Below are positions 1 to 62,467 of a DNA stretch of 64,000 nt, piece after piece. The translations under genes and the position numbers were made by a program. The notes beneath the pieces were generated by a model. It was not told where the DNA came from and did no database searches. It was given only the letters and a program-made list of their open reading frames with translations. The stretch comes from Rhizophagus irregularis (lineage: Eukaryota), in assembly GCF_026210795.1 (NCBI RefSeq), contig NC_089431.1:5208001-5272000 (forward strand). The letters run 5' to 3'. Position 1 is the stretch's first letter, and each line of letters starts with the position of its first letter.

Positions 1-301
1 AAAAAAAAAAGGAAAAACAATAGCGATAAAAGTATAAAAGTAAACCCGGCCAGTGCTATTCAAGAATTTGAGTGTGACATTAATAGAGTGACAAATAGGA
101 TTTGTCTCTCAGATAAATAAACATGGTGGTAGTGAAGCATGTGGTAAATAAAAAAATAGATCACATGATCGAAGAAATATTGTGGCTACGTTAATTTGTG
201 TCCAAATGATTTTCATGTACCTATTAAATAAAGTTTAAAACTAGTATATTTTAGATTTTTTCTTTTTTTCTCATTTTCTCAATTTTTATTTAAAAATTGT
301 A

Positions 302-1797
302 ATGGTTGATAATAAACTTCTGCCAAAATTATCTCAAAATTTACTCGAAACTTTAGGCGATGAAGAATATTATGATATTACAATTGAAGTTGGAAAAGAC
401 CCTGACGTAAAAATATTTCGTGCTCATAGGGTTATTTTAAATTATCGTTCGTCATATTTACGAAGAGTCTTATCAACCAATAAAAAGAAAAATGACGGCA
501 TTTTGACACATATCAGTTTACCAAATATTTTACCAGAAATTTTTCAAATAATATTAAGGTAATAAAAATATTTATTCAAAACTTCAATGTGTTTTTAATA
601 AATAATACTTCGATGTGTTTTAATAAATAATTTCTAACATTATTTTTACTTACTAGATATATCTATGGGGGAATAATTCCATTGGAAGAATATGATATTT
701 TGAATATTGTTAAAATTTTGATTGCTGCTAATGAGCTTAGCCTTCAAGAATTAATACCTTATTTAGAAACCTTCTTGCTTGAAAATAAAGAAAATTGGGT
801 GGAACAAAATTTTGATTTAATATATCAAATAAGCTATGAAAATGATTCTTTCTTAGAACTTCGAAGATATTGTATTGATATAATTTCCAAAAAGCCAAAT
901 AAATTATTTAATTCGCCAAATTTTTCTTCAATTCAAGAAGAACTATTAATTGCGACCATTCAAAATAATAATCTTCAAATGAGCGAAATTCAAATTTGGG
1001 AACATATGATTAAATGGGGACTTGCTCAACATCCGGAACTTTCATCTGATCTTACAAGCTTTTCAAAAGATAATTTTGATATCCTAAAGAATACTTTACA
1101 ACAATGTATTCCTTATATCAAATTCCATAATTTAAGTTCAAAGGAATTTTTGCATAATATATTTCCCTATAGAGAAATTCTACCCAAGAAATTATTCATG
1201 GAACTATTAGAATTTTTTTTGAATAGTGATTACAGACCTTCTGAAAAATTTAGTTCAGAAAGCGTTGATTCAGTTTTTATTTCAAATCAACATGCCGAAA
1301 TAATCTCAAAATGGATTAATAAATTAGAAATTACAGACGAGTTACCAAGTTCGTGCGAATTCAAATTATTATATCGTGATTCTCGTGATAGGTCTAGTGA
1401 ATTGAATTGTAAATTTAACAAATTCCGAGAAATTTGTAAAAATCAATCTCACACCATAACAGTTATTAAAGCGAAGGATAGTAACAAAATTCTCGGAGGA
1501 TATAATCCGATTGAATGGAAGTTTGATGATCACTATGGAAATACTAAGGATAGTTTTATATTCTCCTTTAGTAATAATAGTATCGAGAACTACATTTTAA
1601 GTCATGTAAAGGATAAAGAGAAAGCTATATATAGTGGGACATACAGTGTTAGTATAGCATTTGATTTTGACTTACAATTATACAGTGATGCTTCTGACCA
1701 ATTAAGAGTTAGTTGTGAGAAAAGTTCTTATGAAAAACACATCGGAGAAATCAATGATTTATATATAGAAGAATTTGAAGTATTTCAAATTGTGTAA
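302..1797 (+). CDS. BTB/POZ-BACK-TLDc protein, copy 1 (exons 302-558, 657-1797)
   Basis: BTB motif (DITIEVG..KIFRAHRVIL..RS.Y), GT-AG intron 559-656 joining ILR|YIYGG, BACK-like EIQIWEHMIKWG, TLDc motifs FKLLYRDSRD, ILGGYNPIEW, DSFIFSF, EEFEVFQI. Confidence 0.92.
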
Positions 1798-3236
1798 GAT
1801 TTATATTAAATCCAAAAATTATATTATTTCATATTATTTGTAGCGATAATTTGCCTTTATATCATAATGGTTTATTTCATCCATATTTTATTTACTCTTT
1901 TCTGGATCTTTTATTTTCATAAAATATGTTAAACATTTCACTGATAGATGGCGTTTATATATTTAATATATTAAATTTATGTAATATTTTTGTAATATCA
2001 ATGGGCATATAGACGGAATAGCTTTATGATATTTCTAATATATTCCAAATTACCAACGATTTACGATTTAGCAAATATTTTTGTAATATAAATAACATAT
2101 TTTTGGAATATTTCTATTATATACTGAAATACTACTAATAAAATATATATATTATAGATATATGCAAAAAATATAGACTGTTACATTTGTATGTATTTCT
2201 TAATTTGTATATTTTGCAATGCTTAGTATTTGATGCAATTAAAGTTTGTTTTGAAACCTTTCGCTATTTATGTTAAATTAGTCATTACGTGCGATTAATA
2301 TTAAACTCTGCATTCAATAAAATTTTAAACTATCGTAATTTTTCCCCCTTTTGAAATTTAAACTTTATCGAAACATTTCCCCTTTTAGAATTTTAAACTT
2401 TTAATTATTCTTGGTATTGATGAATGAAAAGAAAGGACTTATAAAATGTTTTTCTTTGTGCGATTCGACGGGTGGTGAAACAAATTGGCAAAAAAGAAGA
2501 AAATTAAATTCGAAACTTAAAAAAAAAAAATATAAATTCAATTCTATGAAACTAATGACGTGAAAGGGATCATCAAACTTTTCCCCTTTCCTTCGTACTT
2601 TCTCCTTTTCCCTAGTCCTTATGCCCGTATATACAATTTCCTTTAACAGATAATTCCCTATCCATCGCTAATGAAAAAAAAATTTACCACTTCAAATTTT
2701 TTTTCACCCGCGATAATTTAATTTCTTTCATTATTCACGCTTTGGAGAAAGTTTGCATTATAAATCATTTTCATTAGAAATCAAAAATAACTTAACCATC
2801 ACAAATTTAACATCATACTTAAACACTATTATAAACCATTAAATTCATCGAATAAGTTATACGTGATTTATTTTTATTTAAAAAAAAAAGAAAAAGCAAT
2901 AGTGATAAAAGTATAAAGTAAACTCGACAAGTGCTATTCACTGGCACGTATTGAAGAATTTTGGTGATGACATTAATAGAGTATTTCACCTGCTCGAAAA
3001 AAAACCAAGTTTCTCAGATAAATAAACGTGGTGGTTGTGAAACGTGGTAAATAAAAAAAAAAAAGATCACATGACCGAAGAAATTTTCTGATTAGTATGA
3101 CAACGTTTTGTTACGTTAATTTGTGTCCAAATGATTTTCATGTGCTTATTAAATAAAGTTCAAAACTAGTATATTTTGGATTTTTTCTTTTTTTTGCCTT
3201 TTTTCTCATTTTCTCAATTTTTATTTAAAAATTGTG

Positions 3237-4723
3237 ATGGTTGATAATAAACTTCTGCCAAAATTATCTCAAAATTTACTCGAAACTTTAGGCGATGAAG
3301 AATATTATGATATTACAATTGAAGTTGGAAAAGACCCTGACGTAAAAATATTTCGTGCTCATAGGGTTATTTTAAATTATCGTTCACCATATTTGCGAAG
3401 AGTTCTATCAACTAACAAAAAGAAAAGTGATGGAACTTTGACGAATATTAAGTTACCAAATATTTTACCAGAAATTTTTCAAATAATATTAAGGTAATAA
3501 AAATATGTTAATTTAAAATTTTAAAAATTTATGTATTTTTAGTAAATAATTTCTAATATTAATTATCATTTTCAATTAGATATATTTATGGAGGAATAAT
3601 TCCATTGGAAGAATATAATATTTTTGATATTCTCAAAATTTTGGTTGCAGTTAATGAGCTTAGTCTTCAAGAATTAATACCTTTTTTGGAATCCTTTTTA
3701 CTTGAAAATAAAGAAAATTGGGTGGAACAACATTTTGATTTAATATATCAAATAAGCTATGAAAATGATTCTTTCTTAGAAATTCGGAAATGTTGTATTG
3801 ATTTAATTTCCAAAGAGCCAAATAAAATATTTAATTCGCCAAATTTCTCTTCGATTTCAGAAAAACTATTAATCGCGACTATTCAAAATAATAATCTTCG
3901 AATGAGCGAAATTCGAACTTGGGAACATGTGATAAAATGGGGACTTGCACAAAATCCAGAACTTCCTCCTGAATATACAAGCTTTTCGAAGGATGATATT
4001 AACACATTAAAAAATACTTTACAACAATGTATTCCTCATATTAGATTCCAAAATTTAACTTCAAAAGAATTTTTGCATAATATATTTCCTCATAGAGAAA
4101 TACTGCCCAAAGGATTATATATAGATTTATTGAAATTTTTTTTGAATAGTGATTATAGACCGTCTGATAAATCCAGTTCAAAAGGCGTTGATTCCGTGAT
4201 TATTTCAAATCAACATGTTGAATTGATATCAAAGTGGGTTAATAAATTAGAAATTACAGACGAGTTAACAACTTCAAATAAATTCAAATTATTATATCGC
4301 GAATCTCGTGATGGGTCTGGTAAACAAAATAATAGTTTTAATAAATTTCGAGAGATTTGCAAAAATCGATCTCACACTATAATAGTTATTAAAGTGAAAA
4401 ACAGTAATGGAATTCTTGGAGGGTATAATCCGATAGAATGGAAATTTGATGGTAATTATGGTATCACTAAAGATAGTTTTATATTCTTTTTTAAAAATAG
4501 TATTGAAAATTATGTTTTAAGTCGTGTAAAGAATGAAAAGAAAGCGATATATAATGGAACATATTATCATTTCGGTCCATCATTTGATGCTGACTTATAT
4601 GTATACAGAGATATTTTTGATGAATTAAGAATTGGTTGTGAAAAAAATTCCTATGAAGAAAATATTGAAAAAATCAATTATTCATATGTAGAAGAATTTG
4701 AAGTATTTCAGATTGATGTTTAA
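3237..4723 (+). CDS. BTB-BACK-TLDc protein, copy 2 (exons 3237-3493, 3580-4723)
   Basis: Same domain motifs and same intron position; upstream region 2880-3236 homologous to 1-301. Confidence 0.92.
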
Positions 4724-9768: not shown

Positions 9769-10362
9769 AATTGATGTTTAACCTAAAGATTTATATTATT
9801 TTTAAACTATTCGTATAATAGTGGTTTTATTTTCATTTTCATATTTTATTTTATTTGTATTGATTCCCATAGATTATTAAATAAAAAATCTTGGTTGCCA
9901 AACAGTTTTTAATAAACAAATAAATAATCGTTTCAAGTATGAATTATTTTAAATATCATAAAAGTTAGCTTAATTTCTTTAATTTGTTTAAATTGAATAA
10001 ACTTTAAATAAATTAATAAAATAAACTAATATGAAATTTTTTAATAATTAAAAGAATTAAGAGAATTAATATTATAGACGTTATTTATTAAAATATTAAT
10101 TAGTAGGAAAACGGTAACTGTTAAAGTCCTTCGCGTTTATTTTACTTAGGATCTTTTTTAATTACAACAAACAAAAAAAATTGATTACGGAAAACAACAA
10201 ATTATCAGTGCTATAAAAGAAAGGAATATTATTGAAGATTCTTTAAAACATATAGAAAATCATTGTTTAAAATTGAGTGTTAAAATTTCTCTAACGTGCT
10301 AGTCCTAAGAATGTTATTACGGAAAAACTTTGCACAATAATTCAAAACATGTAATTATTATT

Positions 10363-10439
10363 TGTTGCTGACTTAGCCAAGACTTTAAAAATTTGTTGTC
10401 ACCTGATCACCACGTTGAGGTGCAACAACATTGATCAGG
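10363..10439 (-). ncRNA. HDV-like ribozyme candidate, copy A
   Basis: Reverse strand reads CCUGAUC AA UGUUGUUGC ACC UCAACGU GGU GAUCAGG UG ACAA CAA..UUG GCUAA GUCAGCAACA; P1, P1.1, P2, P3, P4 and J4/2 C can all be assigned. Confidence 0.6.
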
Positions 10440-10860
10440 GGGAAAGTGAAAGGGAAAGGGGAAGACGAAAGGGAAAGGAAGACGAAAAGGAAAGGGAAGA
10501 CGAAAGGAAAGTGGAAACGAAAGGGAAAGGGAAACGAAGGGAAAGTGGAAAATGGAAATGGAAGAGAAAGGGAACAAAACTGAAAGGGAAAGGGTAAACG
10601 AAAGGGAAAGGGAAAACGAAAGGGAAAGAGCAAGAAAATACACAAACATACATACAAGAGCAAGGAAATACACGAACACACACCGCCCACACACAATCCC
10701 ACACATAAACCTACACACAACAACTCACATACCTAAAAGGAGACATAAAGAAAAGGACCTAAGAATAAAGAGAAGACCTAGACAGAGAAAAAACAGACCA
10801 AAAAAAAGAAGATAAAGACTTAAAAAAAAGAAGACAAAGAAAAAAAAAGATAAAGAAAAC
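10440..10860. repeat. Simple-repeat tract: (GGGAAA/CGAAA)n, then CA-rich, then A/G-rich
   Basis: Directly visible low-complexity sequence; explains the spurious overlapping ORFs. Confidence 0.9.
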
Positions 10861-19420: not shown

Positions 19421-20281
19421 TTTTTTGTATGTGTTTATTTTACGGTATATTTTAAGAAATATTGATAATAAGAATCCATAAGTTATGCGTTTTTATTATA
19501 AAAGATCATATGTTATTTATCCTTTCGTGAGTGTTTCGATGTTTCGATCCGTGCGACCGTGACCAACCTGGATAATTTTTTTCCGGATAATTTATCTGGA
19601 TAACGGTTTCTATCCGGATAAGTCATATTCATAACCTCCGAATAATATCAAAATTTAAGCGTGACGACATTCATCGAATTTTCATGAAAAATAAAACAAA
19701 AAAGATAAATAGTCGTTTACAGTATTATGACGTGCGTATATTTGTCAAATGAAAAGGTGGTATAGTTTTTCTTTACATGCGTAAAGATTTCACGTGACTT
19801 CATATAATTTGTCACCCCATTTTCAAATATTATTTGTCGCTTCCTTTAAAAGTACCATAAAAATTGGCCAATAATTTTAGGTTGGCTGATGTAAATCACG
19901 TATCACGCCGTTTCTCAAAATTATTTCATTATCTTAAATTAATATAGACACAAGTTTATAATATGGTATTTATAAAGTATATAAATTAATTGATCATATG
20001 ATCAATTATAATCATGAGTCATCTTTTGTGTAAATTTACGCAATTTTTAATACTCATATGTTGATTCATGACTTACGATTGATAAAGAATATATAAATGT
20101 TACATTCATTTATTAAATAGGAAATTGTAATAATTGAATCCAAAAATCAGTATGACAATTAAGGAGTTGTGGCATGTTATAATATTAGTCATAACTTATG
20201 ACTCATGACTAATCAATTTCATTCACGTACATCTCAAAAAAAAAATATATATATAAATACCTTTACCTTTCCCTCGTTCTT

Positions 20282-20425
20282 TGTGGTGTGGTGGTGTGGG
20301 TGGGTGTGTGTGTGGTGTGGTGGTGTGGTGGTGTGGGTGTGTGTGTGTGTGTGGTGTGTGTGCGTGGGTGTGTGTGTGGTGTATGTGGGAGGCTGTGTGG
20401 TGGTGGTGTGGGTGGCGTGTGGCGT
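20282..20425. repeat. GT/GGT microsatellite tract
   Basis: Directly visible (GT)n/(GTG)n sequence. Confidence 0.95.
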
Positions 20426-20473
20426 ATGTTTTGTTTCCCCTCGCTCTTTTCCCTTACCCCTTTTTTTCGAGGT

Positions 20474-20552
20474 CCTGATCAATGTTGCTGCACCTCAACG
20501 TTGGTGATCAGGTGACAACAAGCTTTTTAAAGACTTGGCTAAGTCAGCAACA
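20474..20552 (+). ncRNA. HDV-like ribozyme candidate, copy B (best preserved)
   Basis: P1 CCUGAUC/GAUCAGG, P2 UGUUGCUGC/G(U)CAGCAACA, P3 ACC/GGU, L3 UCAACGUU, P1.1 CA/UG, ACAA, P4 CAAG..CUUG, J4/2 GCUAA (putative catalytic C at 20539). Confidence 0.65.
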
Positions 20553-21760
20553 ATATAAGCCGCCATTAATCTGATCATTTTTTATCAAATAATTATAATA
20601 AATTGTCAATCATTATACAGTACAATTCTCGTCATTTGATTGAAAGAATTTTTTGCATGTATTTGTTTAAAGATATGTTTTAAAAAATATTGATAATAAT
20701 CCATTGAGTTGTGCGCTTATAAAAGATTATGATTCATAAATTATTTATCCTAATGCTTCGGTCATATTCATAACTTCCGAATAATAAAAAATTTTAGCGT
20801 CTATTATTGTAAATTCGTGTCATTCATCGAATTTCTATGAGAAATAAAAATAAATAAATATCATGTAGATCTTTCTTCGCTATAAAAATTACCAAATAAA
20901 ATTATTAATCATAATTAACAATCATGAAAACGGGAACAAAATCAGCAATTACAAATTACAATAATAACTTCTTTGGGAACGTAATGTTGTGAAAATTAAT
21001 AAAAAAGAGAAAATAAGCAAATAACTGAAATAAGTAAAAACTAAATATTTGATTGTAGGATTATTATTTTTACCACACAAATTTAAAAATTCTGAATGTT
21101 TGGTTTTTATATTCTATTATTACCAATCCAGCTTGTAAATATCAATATTGTCCAGTAATTATCCTTTGATTCGATCATTTTTTTATCAAGTAATTTTTTT
21201 AAAAAAACTATTATAACCTTTTTTTTTAAAGTGTTAACTCTTAAGATGGTTTATATGAATAAAAGCTTATTAAAAATTAAATTATGAAGTTAGTTTAATT
21301 CTAGATGCTCTAAAAAAATGTGGAAATAGAATAAACTATAATCTTACTAGTAAATGTTTAATTAAATACAAAGTATCCTACATTCCTACATATATAATTA
21401 TCGTAATAATAGATATCATTTAATCTACTTTGCTAAAAATATGTACTAGAATTATTAAGGATTATCTTTCTGAACTAAATTTCGAAAATGAAATACAAAT
21501 TTATTTCGATGGTAATAAAAGTATATTTAAATGTTAAATTATTTAAAAATGACATTTTAAAAAACATTAATTGGTTAAATGTTTATATAAACCTAATTCA
21601 GGCTAGCATTAAATAATTTGGCAGAGTTATCTTATCTTTTAGTAAATTTTCTTAGAGCTAAATTCTCATTTCTCACAAGATTTATACATTATTACAGAAT
21701 TTTTTATCTATTTGTTACCTTTATATGTCACACAAAATTTACGTGAAGTTTCGAATATTA

Positions 21761-50587: not shown

Positions 50588-51760
50588 ATGGGTAATGTTG
50601 TTGCAGCGCTTTCTGCTATTGATAATGTATTTTGTGATTTGAATTTTTTTTCTTTTTTTTTTGAAATTAACAATTTTATTAACATTATTTGGTTAAGATG
50701 TCTACTTTTTGGATATAGTATCAGTTAGTAATTTATTCATTCATTTATTTTTTTCGAAGAAAAAAAAATAAATTTTTACGATATTAAAATGTTGATCTTT
50801 TTTCTCACATGTTAATGCCATATCTGGAGTTCTTACTATGCCTTATTTTCGTAAAGAATTCCCTAATAATTCCCTTTTGGACCTGCAAAAGAAGAATCAA
50901 TTGTGCCATCGCTTTTAGCAGGATGGTTTTTTGGCATGACAATTGAGGCGCAGTAATTCCGATATGTTCTCTTATTTTTCGTGATTTATAGGAGTTTCAC
51001 TTGCGTCAGGATATTCGTTTGATAAAATTGATAGAAAGTACTCAATTCTTGTCGGATTTTATACTGTGTTTGTTATCGGTGGTATTTTGCAAGCAACTTC
51101 TACGATATTTGCTCAAATGTACGGGGAAGAATTGTTGCTAGTTGGGCGAGTATATGAAGATCCCTACGTAACAAGCATTAGAAATTATATTTTGATATGA
51201 TAAGTAGTAATTGAATTAATGTAGCTACATAGTATTTATTTATTCGTATTTATAAACTAAAAAATGATTTCCTTATAAATTTAAAGCATCAATCCGAAAT
51301 TAACTCAAAAAAAATTTGTGGACGTCTGGTATCTCTTCAACAATAATCGATTACTATAGGGTAATTTTTTATATATATTTTTTATTTTTATATAAATGTA
51401 TTACAACTTTTGTCTTTTTATTTATTTTTAATTTTTCTTTTTTTTTAGGATTGCAATTTCATTTGGATCGATTATGCTACATCCATATCAATAATGAAGA
51501 GTTTATTAATTCTTAGTTAATAAATAATGATTTTTATATTCTTCTCTTTTAATCACATACTTGAAGGTTGTTTTTTTCTTATCATTGTGCTATGTATTTT
51601 CTCATTTAAAAGTTATTATAGGACCATTTTTTTATTCCATTTTCACCACATTGGTTAGTTGTTCAAAGATCGTGATGAAGAAGCATTAATAATATTAGCA
51701 AGCTTACGATCCGAAGGAGATAAAAATGCAACAGCTGTAACAAGAAGAATATAACCAAGC
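50588..51760 (+). pseudogene. MFS sugar-porter (hexose transporter) pseudogene, N-terminal half
   Basis: Fragments ISGVLTMPYFRKEF, SIVPSLLAG, DKIDRKYSILVG, VFVIGGILQA, GRIVA, QSEI..GRLVSLQQ*SITIG, IPFSPHWLV, RDEEALIILASLR with introns, stops and frameshifts. Confidence 0.8.
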
Positions 51761-52360
51761 ACCTTTATACGATCAAACTACCTTTTTATTACAATTATTA
51801 TTATAACTCCCTTAATACAGCAATCAGTAGATTGCGTGCACAATCATTACTATAATTATGTAAGGTACAAAATTATTATAATCCTTTACATCAATAACGT
51901 TTAAGGTATTGTGAAAGACGTATTTATGTAACAATAATAAAGGATTTACGTGATATTATAACTGAATAATAATTATTATTATATGAAAAAGATATTTGCA
52001 ATTTGGATTGGCACTCGTGTAATCAAGTCAAAATTGAGGTTACGTGATCATACTAATTGCTTTGTGTGCTTTTAGTAAAAATTACAGACATTTCTTTTAT
52101 CTTGTACTTTGACTTGAATTCTGATTAAAGTGATCGTTCTCACTCTATTAACTTATGTCTCTTCATATAATTAAAAACAAAGCTTACAATTACTATGTAA
52201 TGCACAATGGTCATATAAAATTTTACTTGTATATAAATGTTTTAGCTATATATATTCAATATAAAAAAAATATTATACCACATCAAAAAGTAGTTGTAAA
52301 TTATGTCACTATTACCTATGCTGTGGCGCAGTAGTCACATGAAAATCTAGGTGATCGCAA

Positions 52361-52730
52361 CTTGGAAAACGGTAACCGTTAAAGTCTGTTGCGTTTATTT
52401 ACTCACGAAAAATAGCAAATTCAGTGTTACAAAAAAAAAAGAGGATTTTAGAAAATTGTTGTTTAAATTTGAATGTTAAAAATTTCTTCAACGTGATAAT
52501 TTTAAGAATGTTATTATGGAAAAGCTTTGCACAAATTATTTATTTAGTTATGTTTATATGAAATCAATTAATAAATTAATAAAGTGAACAAATCGATTTA
52601 TGACTTATCAGTTATGTAATATTTGTTGTTGACTTAGCAAAGTCTTTTAAATAAAATCTTGTTGTCACCTGATCGCCACGTTATGTTGAGGTGCAGCAAC
52701 ATTGATCGGGGGGAAGGGAAAGGGAAAAAT
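52361..52730 (-). mobile_element. Second copy of the composite Helitron2-like/HDV-motif element (far boundary unresolved)
   Basis: CTTGGAAAACGGTAACCGTTAAAGTC terminus with hairpin; colinear with 10103-10445. Confidence 0.6.
52624..52710 (-). ncRNA. HDV-like ribozyme candidate, copy C (decayed)
   Basis: Same motif with mismatches in P1, P2, P3, P4 and a 5-nt insertion in L3. Confidence 0.45.
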
Positions 52731-53094
52731 GAATAAGAAATAACAAATAATACTATCTATTATAATATTTTCCATTCTTTGTAAGTATATATTTATCCCC
52801 ACACACATGGTACCTTATAGAATCCTTACTATAAAACGCTGCACCACAATACCTTAGGTTATTACAAAAATAACTCTTCCACTTGAGACCCCAAAACTAG
52901 CCCTCCATTCCATATCCTCTATGGTCTGCTCATATGTAGGTGGTGGTGCATCTGGTACACCCTCACCGTCATTATTAGTATTACCTATAATTAACAAATA
53001 TTCATAAGTGTCTGCAGCCACCAGTATACATATGTCATCATTGAGAGTTCACCAAATCTATACAACTGGAATGGCAAACTATCAACCTGACTAT

Positions 53095-53312
53095 AACAGT
53101 TTACTATCCGGAAGACTTTCAGCTGTAACCTTGGATGCACCAAGCATGTCTCATGCGAGGCGTGAACCCTGCGGTGCGCACCTACTCATACGTCCATCCA
53201 GCAAACAGTTTACCATCCGGAAGACTTTCAGCTGTAACCTTGAATGCACCAAGCATGTCTCATGCGAGGCGTGAACCCTGCAGTGCGCACCTACTCATAC
53301 GTCCATCCGGCA
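53095..53312. repeat. Tandem duplication of a GC-rich 109-bp unit
   Basis: Copies start at 53095 and 53204 and differ at only a few positions. Confidence 0.95.
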
Positions 53313-53457
53313 AACTAGTTAATTTATACGTACCACATAATGCCCTAAAGTTTTGATAAGCTAGACCTCTATTGTAAATAGCTATCAGATTATCCTGGGA
53401 TTGTCCTTTAGACGATTTCTTATGTCGTGGCATTTGGGTGAAGTTGAATTTTTGTAT

Positions 53458-60428: not shown

Positions 60429-62467
60429 CTATAACTGAATCATTCCTAAAGTCAGCTCATTTATCAAAGCATCAATATTTCGTTGAGGATTCCAATCATT
60501 TTTTCGTAAATTTATAATATCCTAAAAAAAAAAAAAATTTATTAGATATTTTATTAATAAACATAATAAGAAAAATTCAAAAATATTTAACAAAATTTAC
60601 CATTAACATAAATTTAATGCGGTTTGACAAACTTGGAAGCTTTGATATTTTCTCTAAGCGATTGAAATAAGAATTCATACCTTTTTCTTTTGTTTTCTTA
60701 ATCTGTTTTTGTTTGACATGATCAAGTTGTTTCCCTACCGTATTCAATAATATACATAAACTTTCCATTTCTTCTTCTTTAGGTGAGTCTTTAAATATTG
60801 ATAATTCCGATATACAATTATGCATGATATTTTCTGTGAGCATGTTTAATTTAAACATTTCACCAATGAAACATATTAAACCCAGACCTTTTCTTTTAGC
60901 TTTTGCAGCCGCATAATATTTGTCTGATGTCAGATCACTTTCATTGGAAGACGATGGGATGTTAATTTTCCAACCTTTCTCAAAATCTTCTTGACAGTGA
61001 TTAATAAGATACTTTCTAAATAATGTACCACCTTGAACAGATTTACCATCGGTATTTTTGATACTTTCATCAACTATTTCAGGGTCAACTCTTTCCATCA
61101 TCTTACGACAAAGATAAGCATAAATTGCACAAAATTTTGAGTCATTACAAGATCTCTCAAATATTAGTCGAATAATTTCTCTTAATATACGTCCATCTCT
61201 TTCACCTCTTGACTTGTTACCATAAATAATAATTTGATCTGATAAAGATTCAAAATTTTTCAACGTTAATTTATTTAATAACGCATTAACTTTACGTTGC
61301 ACCATGTCAAGATGACCTGAACTTTCCGAAGTTAGTAATAATGTGCTTCCACTTCCAGTACGACCAAGTGCAGCTCGTCCAAAGATGCTTGAAGTAGTTG
61401 GTATTTCATTTCTCTTTGTCGAAGCAATAATACTTTCTTCACTTGTTTTCAAGGGGAAGAATTCAAATTCGTTCATTTGATTGAATTGAGACTGATTCGA
61501 ACTAATACGAGGCCTTGATTTATCACTTGACTTGCTATCAGGGTCCAAAAGACTTAAAAACGTTTTTAATAAATCTTTATATAATTCCTTCGGTAAAATT
61601 CTTTTATAAGGTAATACACTATCCATAAATTCTTTGGAAGATAAATTGTAAAATCTAATAAATGGAATACATTGTTGTGGAGTATTCTTTAAAGTATTGA
61701 AATCATCCTTTGAATATTTTTTAAAGTCAGTGGGAAGTTCCGGATTTTGAGCAAGTCCCCATTTAAGTAAATATTCCCAAATTTGAATTTCACTCATTTG
61801 AAGATTATCACTTTGAATAATTGTAATTAAAAGTTTTTCTGAAATTAAAGAAAAATTTGGAGATTTGAATATTTTATCAGGTTCCTTTGTAATTAAGTCA
61901 GTACAATATTTTTGAAGGTCCAAGAATGAATCATTTTTGAAACTTGTTTGATAAACGAAATCAAAATTTTGCTCCATCCAATTTGTCTTGTTTTTGACCA
62001 AAAATGATTGCAAATATACGATTAATTCTTGTAAACTAAGTTCACTAGCAGCAATCATTACATTAATTATGTCCAAGGTATCATATTCTTTCAAAGAGAG
62101 TCTTCCTCCATAAATATATCTACAAAAAAAAATCATCTATTCAGTATTTGCAAAATATCAATCATTTACAGTGTGTATTAAGAAAAAATAAAAACCATTT
62201 AAGTTCGTACCTTAAAATTATTGGAAATATCTCTGGTAAAATATTTGGTAATTTAATATGTGTCAAAGTTCCATTATTTTTCTTTTTATTCGTTGACAAT
62301 ATTCTTCGTAAATAAGGAGAACGATAATATAAAATAATAATGTGAGAACGGAAAATTTTTACGTCAGGATCATTACCAACTTCAATAGTAATATCATAAT
62401 ATTCTTCATCATTTAAAATTTCAAGTAAATTATGTGATAATTTTGGTAAAAAATTATCATCATCCAT
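60429..62467 (-). CDS. Chimeric BTB-BACK-MIF4G (eIF4G-derived) protein (exons 62467-62211, 62119-60601, 60521-60429)
   Basis: BTB/BACK as in paralogs, then VQRKVNALLNKLT, FCAIYAYLC, LFRKYLINHCQEDFE, RKGLGLICFIGEMFKLNML, EEMESLCILLNTVGKQLD, SNRIKFMLM|DIINLRKNDW. Confidence 0.9.

Follow-up and report, generated by a model that had tools for sequence, protein, structure and literature searches.

A family of short repeats in the genome of the AM fungus Rhizophagus irregularis appears to encode an HDV-like self-cleaving ribozyme, and we estimate at roughly 55% the probability that this ribozyme resides on a small non-coding mobile unit, which is copied through RNA by means of a borrowed reverse transcriptase. 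The parts of this interpretation differ in strength: judging from the sequence, self-cleaving activity of the family is highly likely, and copying of its carrier through RNA has somewhat better than even odds. We are probably dealing with a real and active HDV-like family, i.e. with a known class in a lineage for which we found no report of it; the ribozyme chemistry itself is no surprise, and the carrier is the more interesting point. The family is represented by three copies, designated A, B and C, in the window, i.e. in the whole stretch of 64,000 nucleotides that was analysed (contig NC_089431.1, positions 5,208,001 to 5,272,000). One of the proteins encoded in the window has 99% identity to a protein assigned to R. 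irregularis, in support of an AM-fungal host.

All three copies proposed in a sequence-only reading of the window were found at the same positions and on the same strands (Table 1). Pair-by-pair audit of copy B gave complete P1 (7/7), P2 (8/8) and P3 (3/3), a P1.1 consisting of C-G and A-U, which agrees with the CA/UG assigned to it before, and a P4 of four pairs followed by a C.A mismatch. Copy A also has complete P1 (7/7), P2 (8/8) and P3 (3/3), a 7-nt L3 and the catalytic-position C10376, and its P4 is limited to three pairs, with A.C and U.U next. It departs from the family majority at 10425 (P2 C-G to U-G, the pairing-neutral change noticed earlier and now confirmed), 10392 and 10382 (P4 shortened). 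Copy C carries mismatches in P1 (C.A), P2 (C.A), P3 (A.C) and P4 (C.U and A.A, two of its first five positions), i.e. five broken pairs among those audited, as well as a 12-nt L3; C52637 is kept, and the copy is probably inactive. Thus, the nested double pseudoknot with P1, P1.1, P2, P3 and P4 in order is complete in B, has a short P4 in A and is broken in C, so that the expectation of every HDV element being present came true for B, nearly so for A, and failed for C with its broken pairs and L3 insertion. The J4/2 catalytic C with the A next to it, the U and C opening L3 and the NCAA joiner occur in all three copies. By its position in the pair audit, C20539 is the cytosine expected in J4/2 of copy B and would be equivalent to C75 of HDV.

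Table 1. Ribozyme copies, structural parts of copy B and adjacent tracts (window coordinates)
Feature	Position	Strand	Basis or remark
Copy B, intact HDV-like ribozyme	20474..20552	+	pair audit, Rfam, descriptor
Copy A, core intact	10363..10439	-	pair audit, Rfam
Copy C, decayed	52624..52710	-	pair audit
Copy B, predicted cut	between 20473 and 20474		
Copy B, P1	20474-80/20506-12	+	
Copy B, J1/2	20481-82	+	
Copy B, P2	20483-90/20545-52	+	
Copy B, extra C between P2 and P3	C20491	+	can pair with G20543, leaving U20544 bulged
Copy B, P3	20492-94/20503-05	+	
Copy B, L3	20495-502	+	
Copy B, P1.1	20496-97/20513-14	+	
Copy B, J1.1/4	20515-18	+	
Copy B, P4	20519-22/20534-37	+	
Copy B, J4/2	20538-42	+	
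Copy B, catalytic-position cytosine of J4/2	20539	+	pair audit
Leader of copy B, nearly A-free	20262..20473	+	GT-rich tract, then pyrimidine tract
Leader of copy A, nearly A-free	10440..10860	-	T-rich, next GT-rich, ending in a (CCCTTT)-type tract
Short pyrimidine tract upstream of copy C	52711..52740	-	
AT-rich downstream flank common to A and C (~260 nt)	10100..10362 (A); ~52350-52620 (C)	-	

Our own HDV descriptor found copy B as the sole match in the window (copy A breaks its P4 rule), and 100 block-wise dinucleotide shuffles of the window yielded no strict and three relaxed matches. Together with the complete pairing of B and the covarying relatives described below, this supports the predicted HDV-like fold. 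In a search with HDV models, as recommended in the sequence-only reading, the top Rfam family for copy A (34.3 bits, E 0.013) and copy B (30.5 bits, E 0.1) was RF02682 (HDV, F. prausnitzii); both scores are below the gathering score of 44, and copy C was absent from the Rfam matches. RF02682 was also the best match for 13 of the 14 relative loci scanned, four of which reach the gathering score, and hammerhead families did not appear among the Rfam matches of the window copies and of these loci. RF02682 shares with the window family the NCAA joiner, the GCUAA of J4/2 and the bulged P2 base; its consensus differs in a G-C first pair and a C-G/U-A P1.1, and, according to the available part of its description, it represents a single bacterial locus upstream of glmM. 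A model built from the family, with the three window copies in its training set, revealed no fourth copy in the window, the next match scoring 12.5 bits. Nested folding alone gave no signal for copy B (z −1.25), as is expected of a pseudoknot.

The C-G pair at the cleavage site had been regarded as atypical. This view did not survive comparison with known systems: C-G is typical of the fungal HDV variants, for which Li and Breaker demonstrated cleavage in 2017 (PMC5640933, in the text available), and it is found in L1TcRz, which cleaves at C1 with G37 closing P1 (PMC3185411, in the part available). Since ribozymes of both kinds cleave, a C-G first pair is no bar to the HDV class. As far as the available text of PMC5640933 describes them, the fungal variants resemble the window family also in the extra C between P2 and P3 (here C20491), in the fungal host and in having no fixed gene association. 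They differ in that loop E replaces a part of P4, while the window family has a plain P4 hairpin, and because loop E is absent we did not file it under their subgroup. Moreover, 230 members in 26 species are reported there, versus perhaps 100–300 in one genome here; ascomycetes are among the species listed, AM fungi are possibly among the rest, and the word “Rhizophagus” is absent from the main text of that paper.

Relatives were collected using a pattern, in which L3, P1.1, J1.1/4 and J4/2 were fixed and P1, P2 and P4 left free. An exact pattern based on the window had found no metagenome loci, and the loop-only one gave 30 database matches (28 metagenome loci, one viral and one archaeal), several of which are re-assemblies of the same DNA. 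P1 is complete (7/7) and P2 has at least 7 pairs in 25 of these 30. Twelve relatives are AT-rich and possess the P1 of the window; we refer to them as the AM-fungal lineage, and the F-box gene checked in one of them had named matches in Funneliformis, Glomus and Rhizophagus (34–47%). Another 14 form an apparently eukaryotic soil lineage with a different P1, and one archaeal genome has a third P1. Two loci (L001 and L008) are broken, having lost the 5' strand of P1, and the sole viral match to the relaxed pattern (L029) was rejected as chance-like with a poor fit. The alignment of 25 rows was made without L001 and L008, near-duplicates (L007, L014, L024 and L025), poorly fitting loci (L004, L018 and L029) and second copies in L009 and L024.

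In this alignment 96.6% of cells are paired, and both sides have changed in 17 of 27 pairs, compared with 3–6 in slid controls. The rows are related and a part of the P2 signal may be slide (the between-lineage change in P2 may be largely a shift by one base), therefore pairs were recounted within lineages, copy C being left out of alignment A2 and L028 out of A3. Both-side changes persisted in 6 of 25 pairs of the soil lineage alone, two of them in P1, and in 2 of 26 pairs of AM fungi alone, both in P2, with P1 invariant. Thus, the covariation proposed earlier as a check was registered as double changes in P1, P2 and P4 and one in P3; P1.1 has none, and its invariance, like that of the catalytic C, is uninformative because the search pattern fixed both. 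The first pair is C-G in all 25 rows, in place of the purine-pyrimidine pair of the general HDV consensus, and all rows have the plain P4 hairpin, without loop E.

The abundance of the family was estimated from assembled contigs of three R. irregularis runs. Summed depth over the ribozyme is ~130–290 times that of a single-copy flank, and on copy B it rises sharply only within 20472–20553, while the A-type downstream flank reached 7–42 times the single-copy level in the same contig sets, i.e. about one-tenth of the ribozyme's. Summed contig depth is not equal to copy number and was taken as an order of magnitude, which suggests perhaps 100–300 copies in R. irregularis. Loose contig ends lead upstream into pyrimidine tracts and downstream into several AT-rich subfamilies. 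Since the rise in depth is limited to the ribozyme and the loose ends are diverse, what the family conserves as its core is the ribozyme. The predicted repeat family is supported by three window copies, many more suggested by contig depth and relatives in databases. RNA was assessed in raw reads of four runs from poly(A) libraries, with roughly one-quarter to one-third of every run covered. They gave 28, 27, 25 and 62 reads, nearly all of them from other copies, and DNA carry-over is possible. Many reads cross the predicted cut uncut and unspliced into the pyrimidine tract; no pile-up of starts or ends and no joints were detected in these four small sets, and the strand bias was inconsistent. 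These reads neither show nor exclude cleavage.

The surroundings of relatives indicate what else belongs to the repeat. In the other AM fungus shared DNA runs 100–400 nt upstream of the ribozyme and mostly stops at about +86; L012 and L019, for instance, have 99.6% identity between −415 and +86, beyond which they diverge. The left edge of the repeat unit is a conserved 50-nt hairpin located 250–410 nt upstream in 8 of 12 AM-fungal loci (L001, L002, L003, L012, L014, L019, L021 and L022); it contains an A.A mismatch and an invariant inner motif, shows what appear to be compensating changes, had no Rfam match and is absent from the window. Behind the ribozyme different broken host genes follow in sense orientation: RPN1 in L003, L012 and L013 (+120 to +300, in L012 to about +2000, with an E-value of 2e-18) and HSP70 in L002 and L019 (+150 to +470). 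RPN1 shows intron-like breaks, which pull towards shuffling at the DNA level. Farther on, L003 and L013 contain a piece reminiscent, by eye, of the zinc-binding region of a Gypsy integrase.

The upstream hairpin, the abrupt parting of L012 and L019 and the variety of captured genes would all suit an active ribozyme on a unit that moves or multiplies as DNA, whether by a Helitron-like route, by Pack-type capture or because tandem gene arrays underwent segmental duplication; the ribozyme would cut read-through transcripts or be a passenger. We consider this scenario unlikely. It leaves unexplained why the 80 nt alone are high-copy and well kept in R. irregularis, and it gives no reason for the double changes; besides, no transposase, Rep or helicase domain lies near the window copies, where the hairpin itself is missing.

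Upstream of the window copies the leaders are nearly free of A. In copy A the (CCCTTT)-type tract abuts the ribozyme directly, and reads and contigs of other copies likewise pass from the ribozyme into pyrimidine-rich tracts. The leaders of A and B are alike in order, their alignment scoring 73.5 when the best of 100 local shuffles reached 63.5, a modest margin. No alignment above shuffles was obtained for the upstream DNA of C with that of A or B, nor for the downstream DNA of A with that of B. By eye the leader of B also looked like that of the other AM fungus, but this likeness was rejected because the alignment did not exceed shuffles. The leader of copy B ends in AG two bases ahead of the predicted cut, and a pyrimidine tract with AG 2–3 nt before this point, similar to a 3' splice site, is visible at 20466–20473 of the window and at −12 to −1 in AM-fungal relatives; this AG is absent in A and C, and no spliced reads were found.

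Such a site might belong to a processing module kept by the host. The ribozyme would then fix the 3' end of an mRNA or non-coding RNA, possibly by being spliced on as the last exon. The conserved upstream module with its structured hairpin would fit, as would the widely variable gene associations of fungal variants (PMC5640933, in the text available) and a small open frame that ends ~150 nt ahead of copy C on the same strand. We nevertheless find this explanation hardly probable: copies A and C have no such AG, RNA reads enter the tract unspliced and show no joints, and one of three window copies, as well as L001 and L008, is broken. The copies sit between BTB/BACK-TLDc and kinase gene arrays, and their orientation to neighbouring genes is not fixed. 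The small frame (52857–53048, minus strand), which ends ~150 nt upstream of copy C, contains a PPPTYE motif and had no Pfam match, and further upstream of this copy there is a 109-bp two-copy tandem with 95% identity (53095–53320).

The sequence-only reading placed the ribozyme at the 5' end of a non-LTR retrotransposon, and precedents for this exist. As far as the available parts of the sources go, HDV ribozymes head R2, L1Tc, RTE and other elements, intergenic copies having downstream DNA in common have been recorded in the hundreds (PMC6765202), and LINEs are present in R. irregularis. L1TcRz, or Pr77, of L1Tc, ingi, NARTc and SIDER (PMC3185411, PMC4035085 and PMC4748587, in the parts available) is likewise cut before C1 with G37 closing P1, has similar letters in P3/L3 and J4/2, a length of ~77–80 nt and many copies; L1Tc has the same CCACC at 16–20 and CGTG at 25–28 and, judging by its primers, also U38 and the J4/2 letters. 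Its P1.1 is described as having one pair (PMC3185411), versus two possible in the window family, and Pr77 forms the extreme 5' terminus of a LINE or SINE, a placement not seen here. The ~260 nt common to A and C could be taken for the body of a LINE or of its short L1Tc/NARTc/SIDER-like derivatives, inserted into pyrimidine-rich targets, with the ribozyme possibly serving also as an internal promoter. These AT-rich sequences, however, are a subfamily flank with about one-tenth of the ribozyme's depth, and show by eye no poly(A) tail or target duplication. No reverse transcriptase frame follows the window copies, the AM-fungal loci, inspected over up to 6 kb, contain no LINE frame, no microsatellite remnant marks the far end, and relatives share upstream rather than downstream DNA. 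Among 59 frames of at least 48 residues around the copies no transposon domain (including transposase, Rep, helicase and reverse transcriptase) was detected, low-complexity frames across the leaders had no Pfam match, and the one Pfam match was a weak intergenic sugar-transporter fragment (50985–51197, plus strand, E 0.0006, below the cut-off). The only LINE fragment, in L010 of the soil lineage, was rejected as a carrier, being antisense and without match to other loci. The 5'-end context is not supported here, and a ribozyme heading a LINE or its short derivatives appears to us quite improbable.

The activity of the ribozyme is subject to two risks. J1/2 has 2 nt in this family, and in the Agam-2-1 ribozyme a one-nt J1/2 allowed little activity and three nt more; a rival helix between the 5' strand of P2 and L3 is 4–6 kcal/mol better than P3 before the 3' strand of P2 is made. 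That the family is a mere fossil or DNA motif with no member still cleaving, as these risks, RNA reads devoid of a cleavage signal and the sub-threshold Rfam scores of A and B might imply, is very improbable in view of the changes, double or G.U-tolerant, that P1, P2 and P4 show within lineages and of the four relatives among 14 that reach the gathering score.

The preferred reading, a small non-autonomous unit copied through RNA, is in line with the helices and with double changes by which they are preserved, with the many copies, the decay of single ones and the lack of a coding body behind. Sharing of upstream DNA, tandem ribozymes and no LINE behind make such a unit preferable to a LINE 5' end, and RNA-level copying is suggested by selective conservation of the ribozyme and by tandems in a relative. 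The latter were found in the soil lineage, where ribozymes stand 236 nt (L026, 1094–1401) or 288 nt (L009, 1239–1620, and L024, 700–1080) apart, the spacer of L026 holding GT-rich repeats; by sequence these are candidate HDV-type retrozymes. By analogy with the HDV class, the transcript would fold into the nested double pseudoknot, and C20539 together with Mg2+ would drive the predicted cut, so that the upstream product would end in a 2',3'-cyclic phosphate and the ribozyme would begin with a 5'-OH, as the class is cut before the first base of P1 with just these ends (PMC5640933 and PMC4908430, in the parts available). More speculatively, this cut may set the ends of the copied RNA, so that only units with a working ribozyme would be copied. 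Such selection would keep the 80 nt far better conserved than their flanks, while inserted copies (C, partly A) would rot. The unit would include the pyrimidine-rich leader, as a partial tandem of the retrozyme or pLTR type, rather than a LINE-like start at the ribozyme.

Non-LTR retrozymes and Penelope pLTRs, as described in the available parts of PMC7229834, PMC8557442 and bioRxiv 10.64898/2026.07.22.740005, are likewise small non-coding units bounded by ribozymes. The tandems of the soil relative fit the 150–450 bp given for retrozymes (PMC7229834), and C-rich repeats beside the ribozyme recall the ends of Athena and Coprina. Both systems use hammerheads, in contrast to the HDV-type family of the window, and for the window copies no tandem, circle or Penelope partner was found, the RNA libraries being poly(A); tandem ribozymes of R. 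irregularis were absent from the window and contig joints, and the window copies had no poly(A) tail, target duplication or partner reverse transcriptase that we could find. The available parts of the sources on Glomhopper and Fanzor disclosed no link to the repeat. We tentatively imagine, as a rather doubtful extension, retrozymes in an HDV-based version. An HDV-type ribozyme, instead of a hammerhead, would set the ends of a non-coding unit, monomers would be released from tandem or read-through transcripts, and a reverse transcriptase taken from another element would copy them to hundreds of sites both in AM fungi and in a further soil eukaryote, with fragments of host genes being shuffled behind.

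No report of HDV ribozymes in AM fungi was found among the papers listed in searches of the openly readable literature, to which extent the family may be called undescribed there. Fungal HDV ribozymes are known to cut. With perhaps 100–300 copies, intact beside decayed, in a model AM fungus having public long-read assemblies and RNA data, their biological role becomes directly testable, since the carrier, the RNA ends, selection acting on pairs and insertion polymorphism are all measurable in one genome. The family would also name a part of the unclassified repeats, which fill 32% of the R. irregularis genome (PMC8647823, in the part available).

Several minor observations deserve mention. A looser pattern gave 42 matches in the viral collection, none above 22.3 bits, and the matches found there with the upstream hairpin (6) and with the letters from P1 to J1.1/4 (10) included no model match. 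Four phage contigs (L040, L063, L067 and L069) contain a possible HDV-like core with the same L3 and a different P1, at 19–22 bits. The Thermoplasmatales genome (L030) may carry two HDV-like ribozymes ~690 nt apart (2990–3063 and 3682–3749), the first with the C-G first pair and the L3 of the fungal family. L015 has at positions 1–100 a ribozyme near-identical to that of the window, followed at 230–3264 by bacterial-looking genes, and is probably a chimeric assembly. Finally, the BTB/BACK-type frame at 60577–62136 of the window (minus strand) is without a TLDc end, and the stretch continuing it resembles by eye what we take to be the MIF4G domain of eIF4G, so that this may be a chimeric gene.
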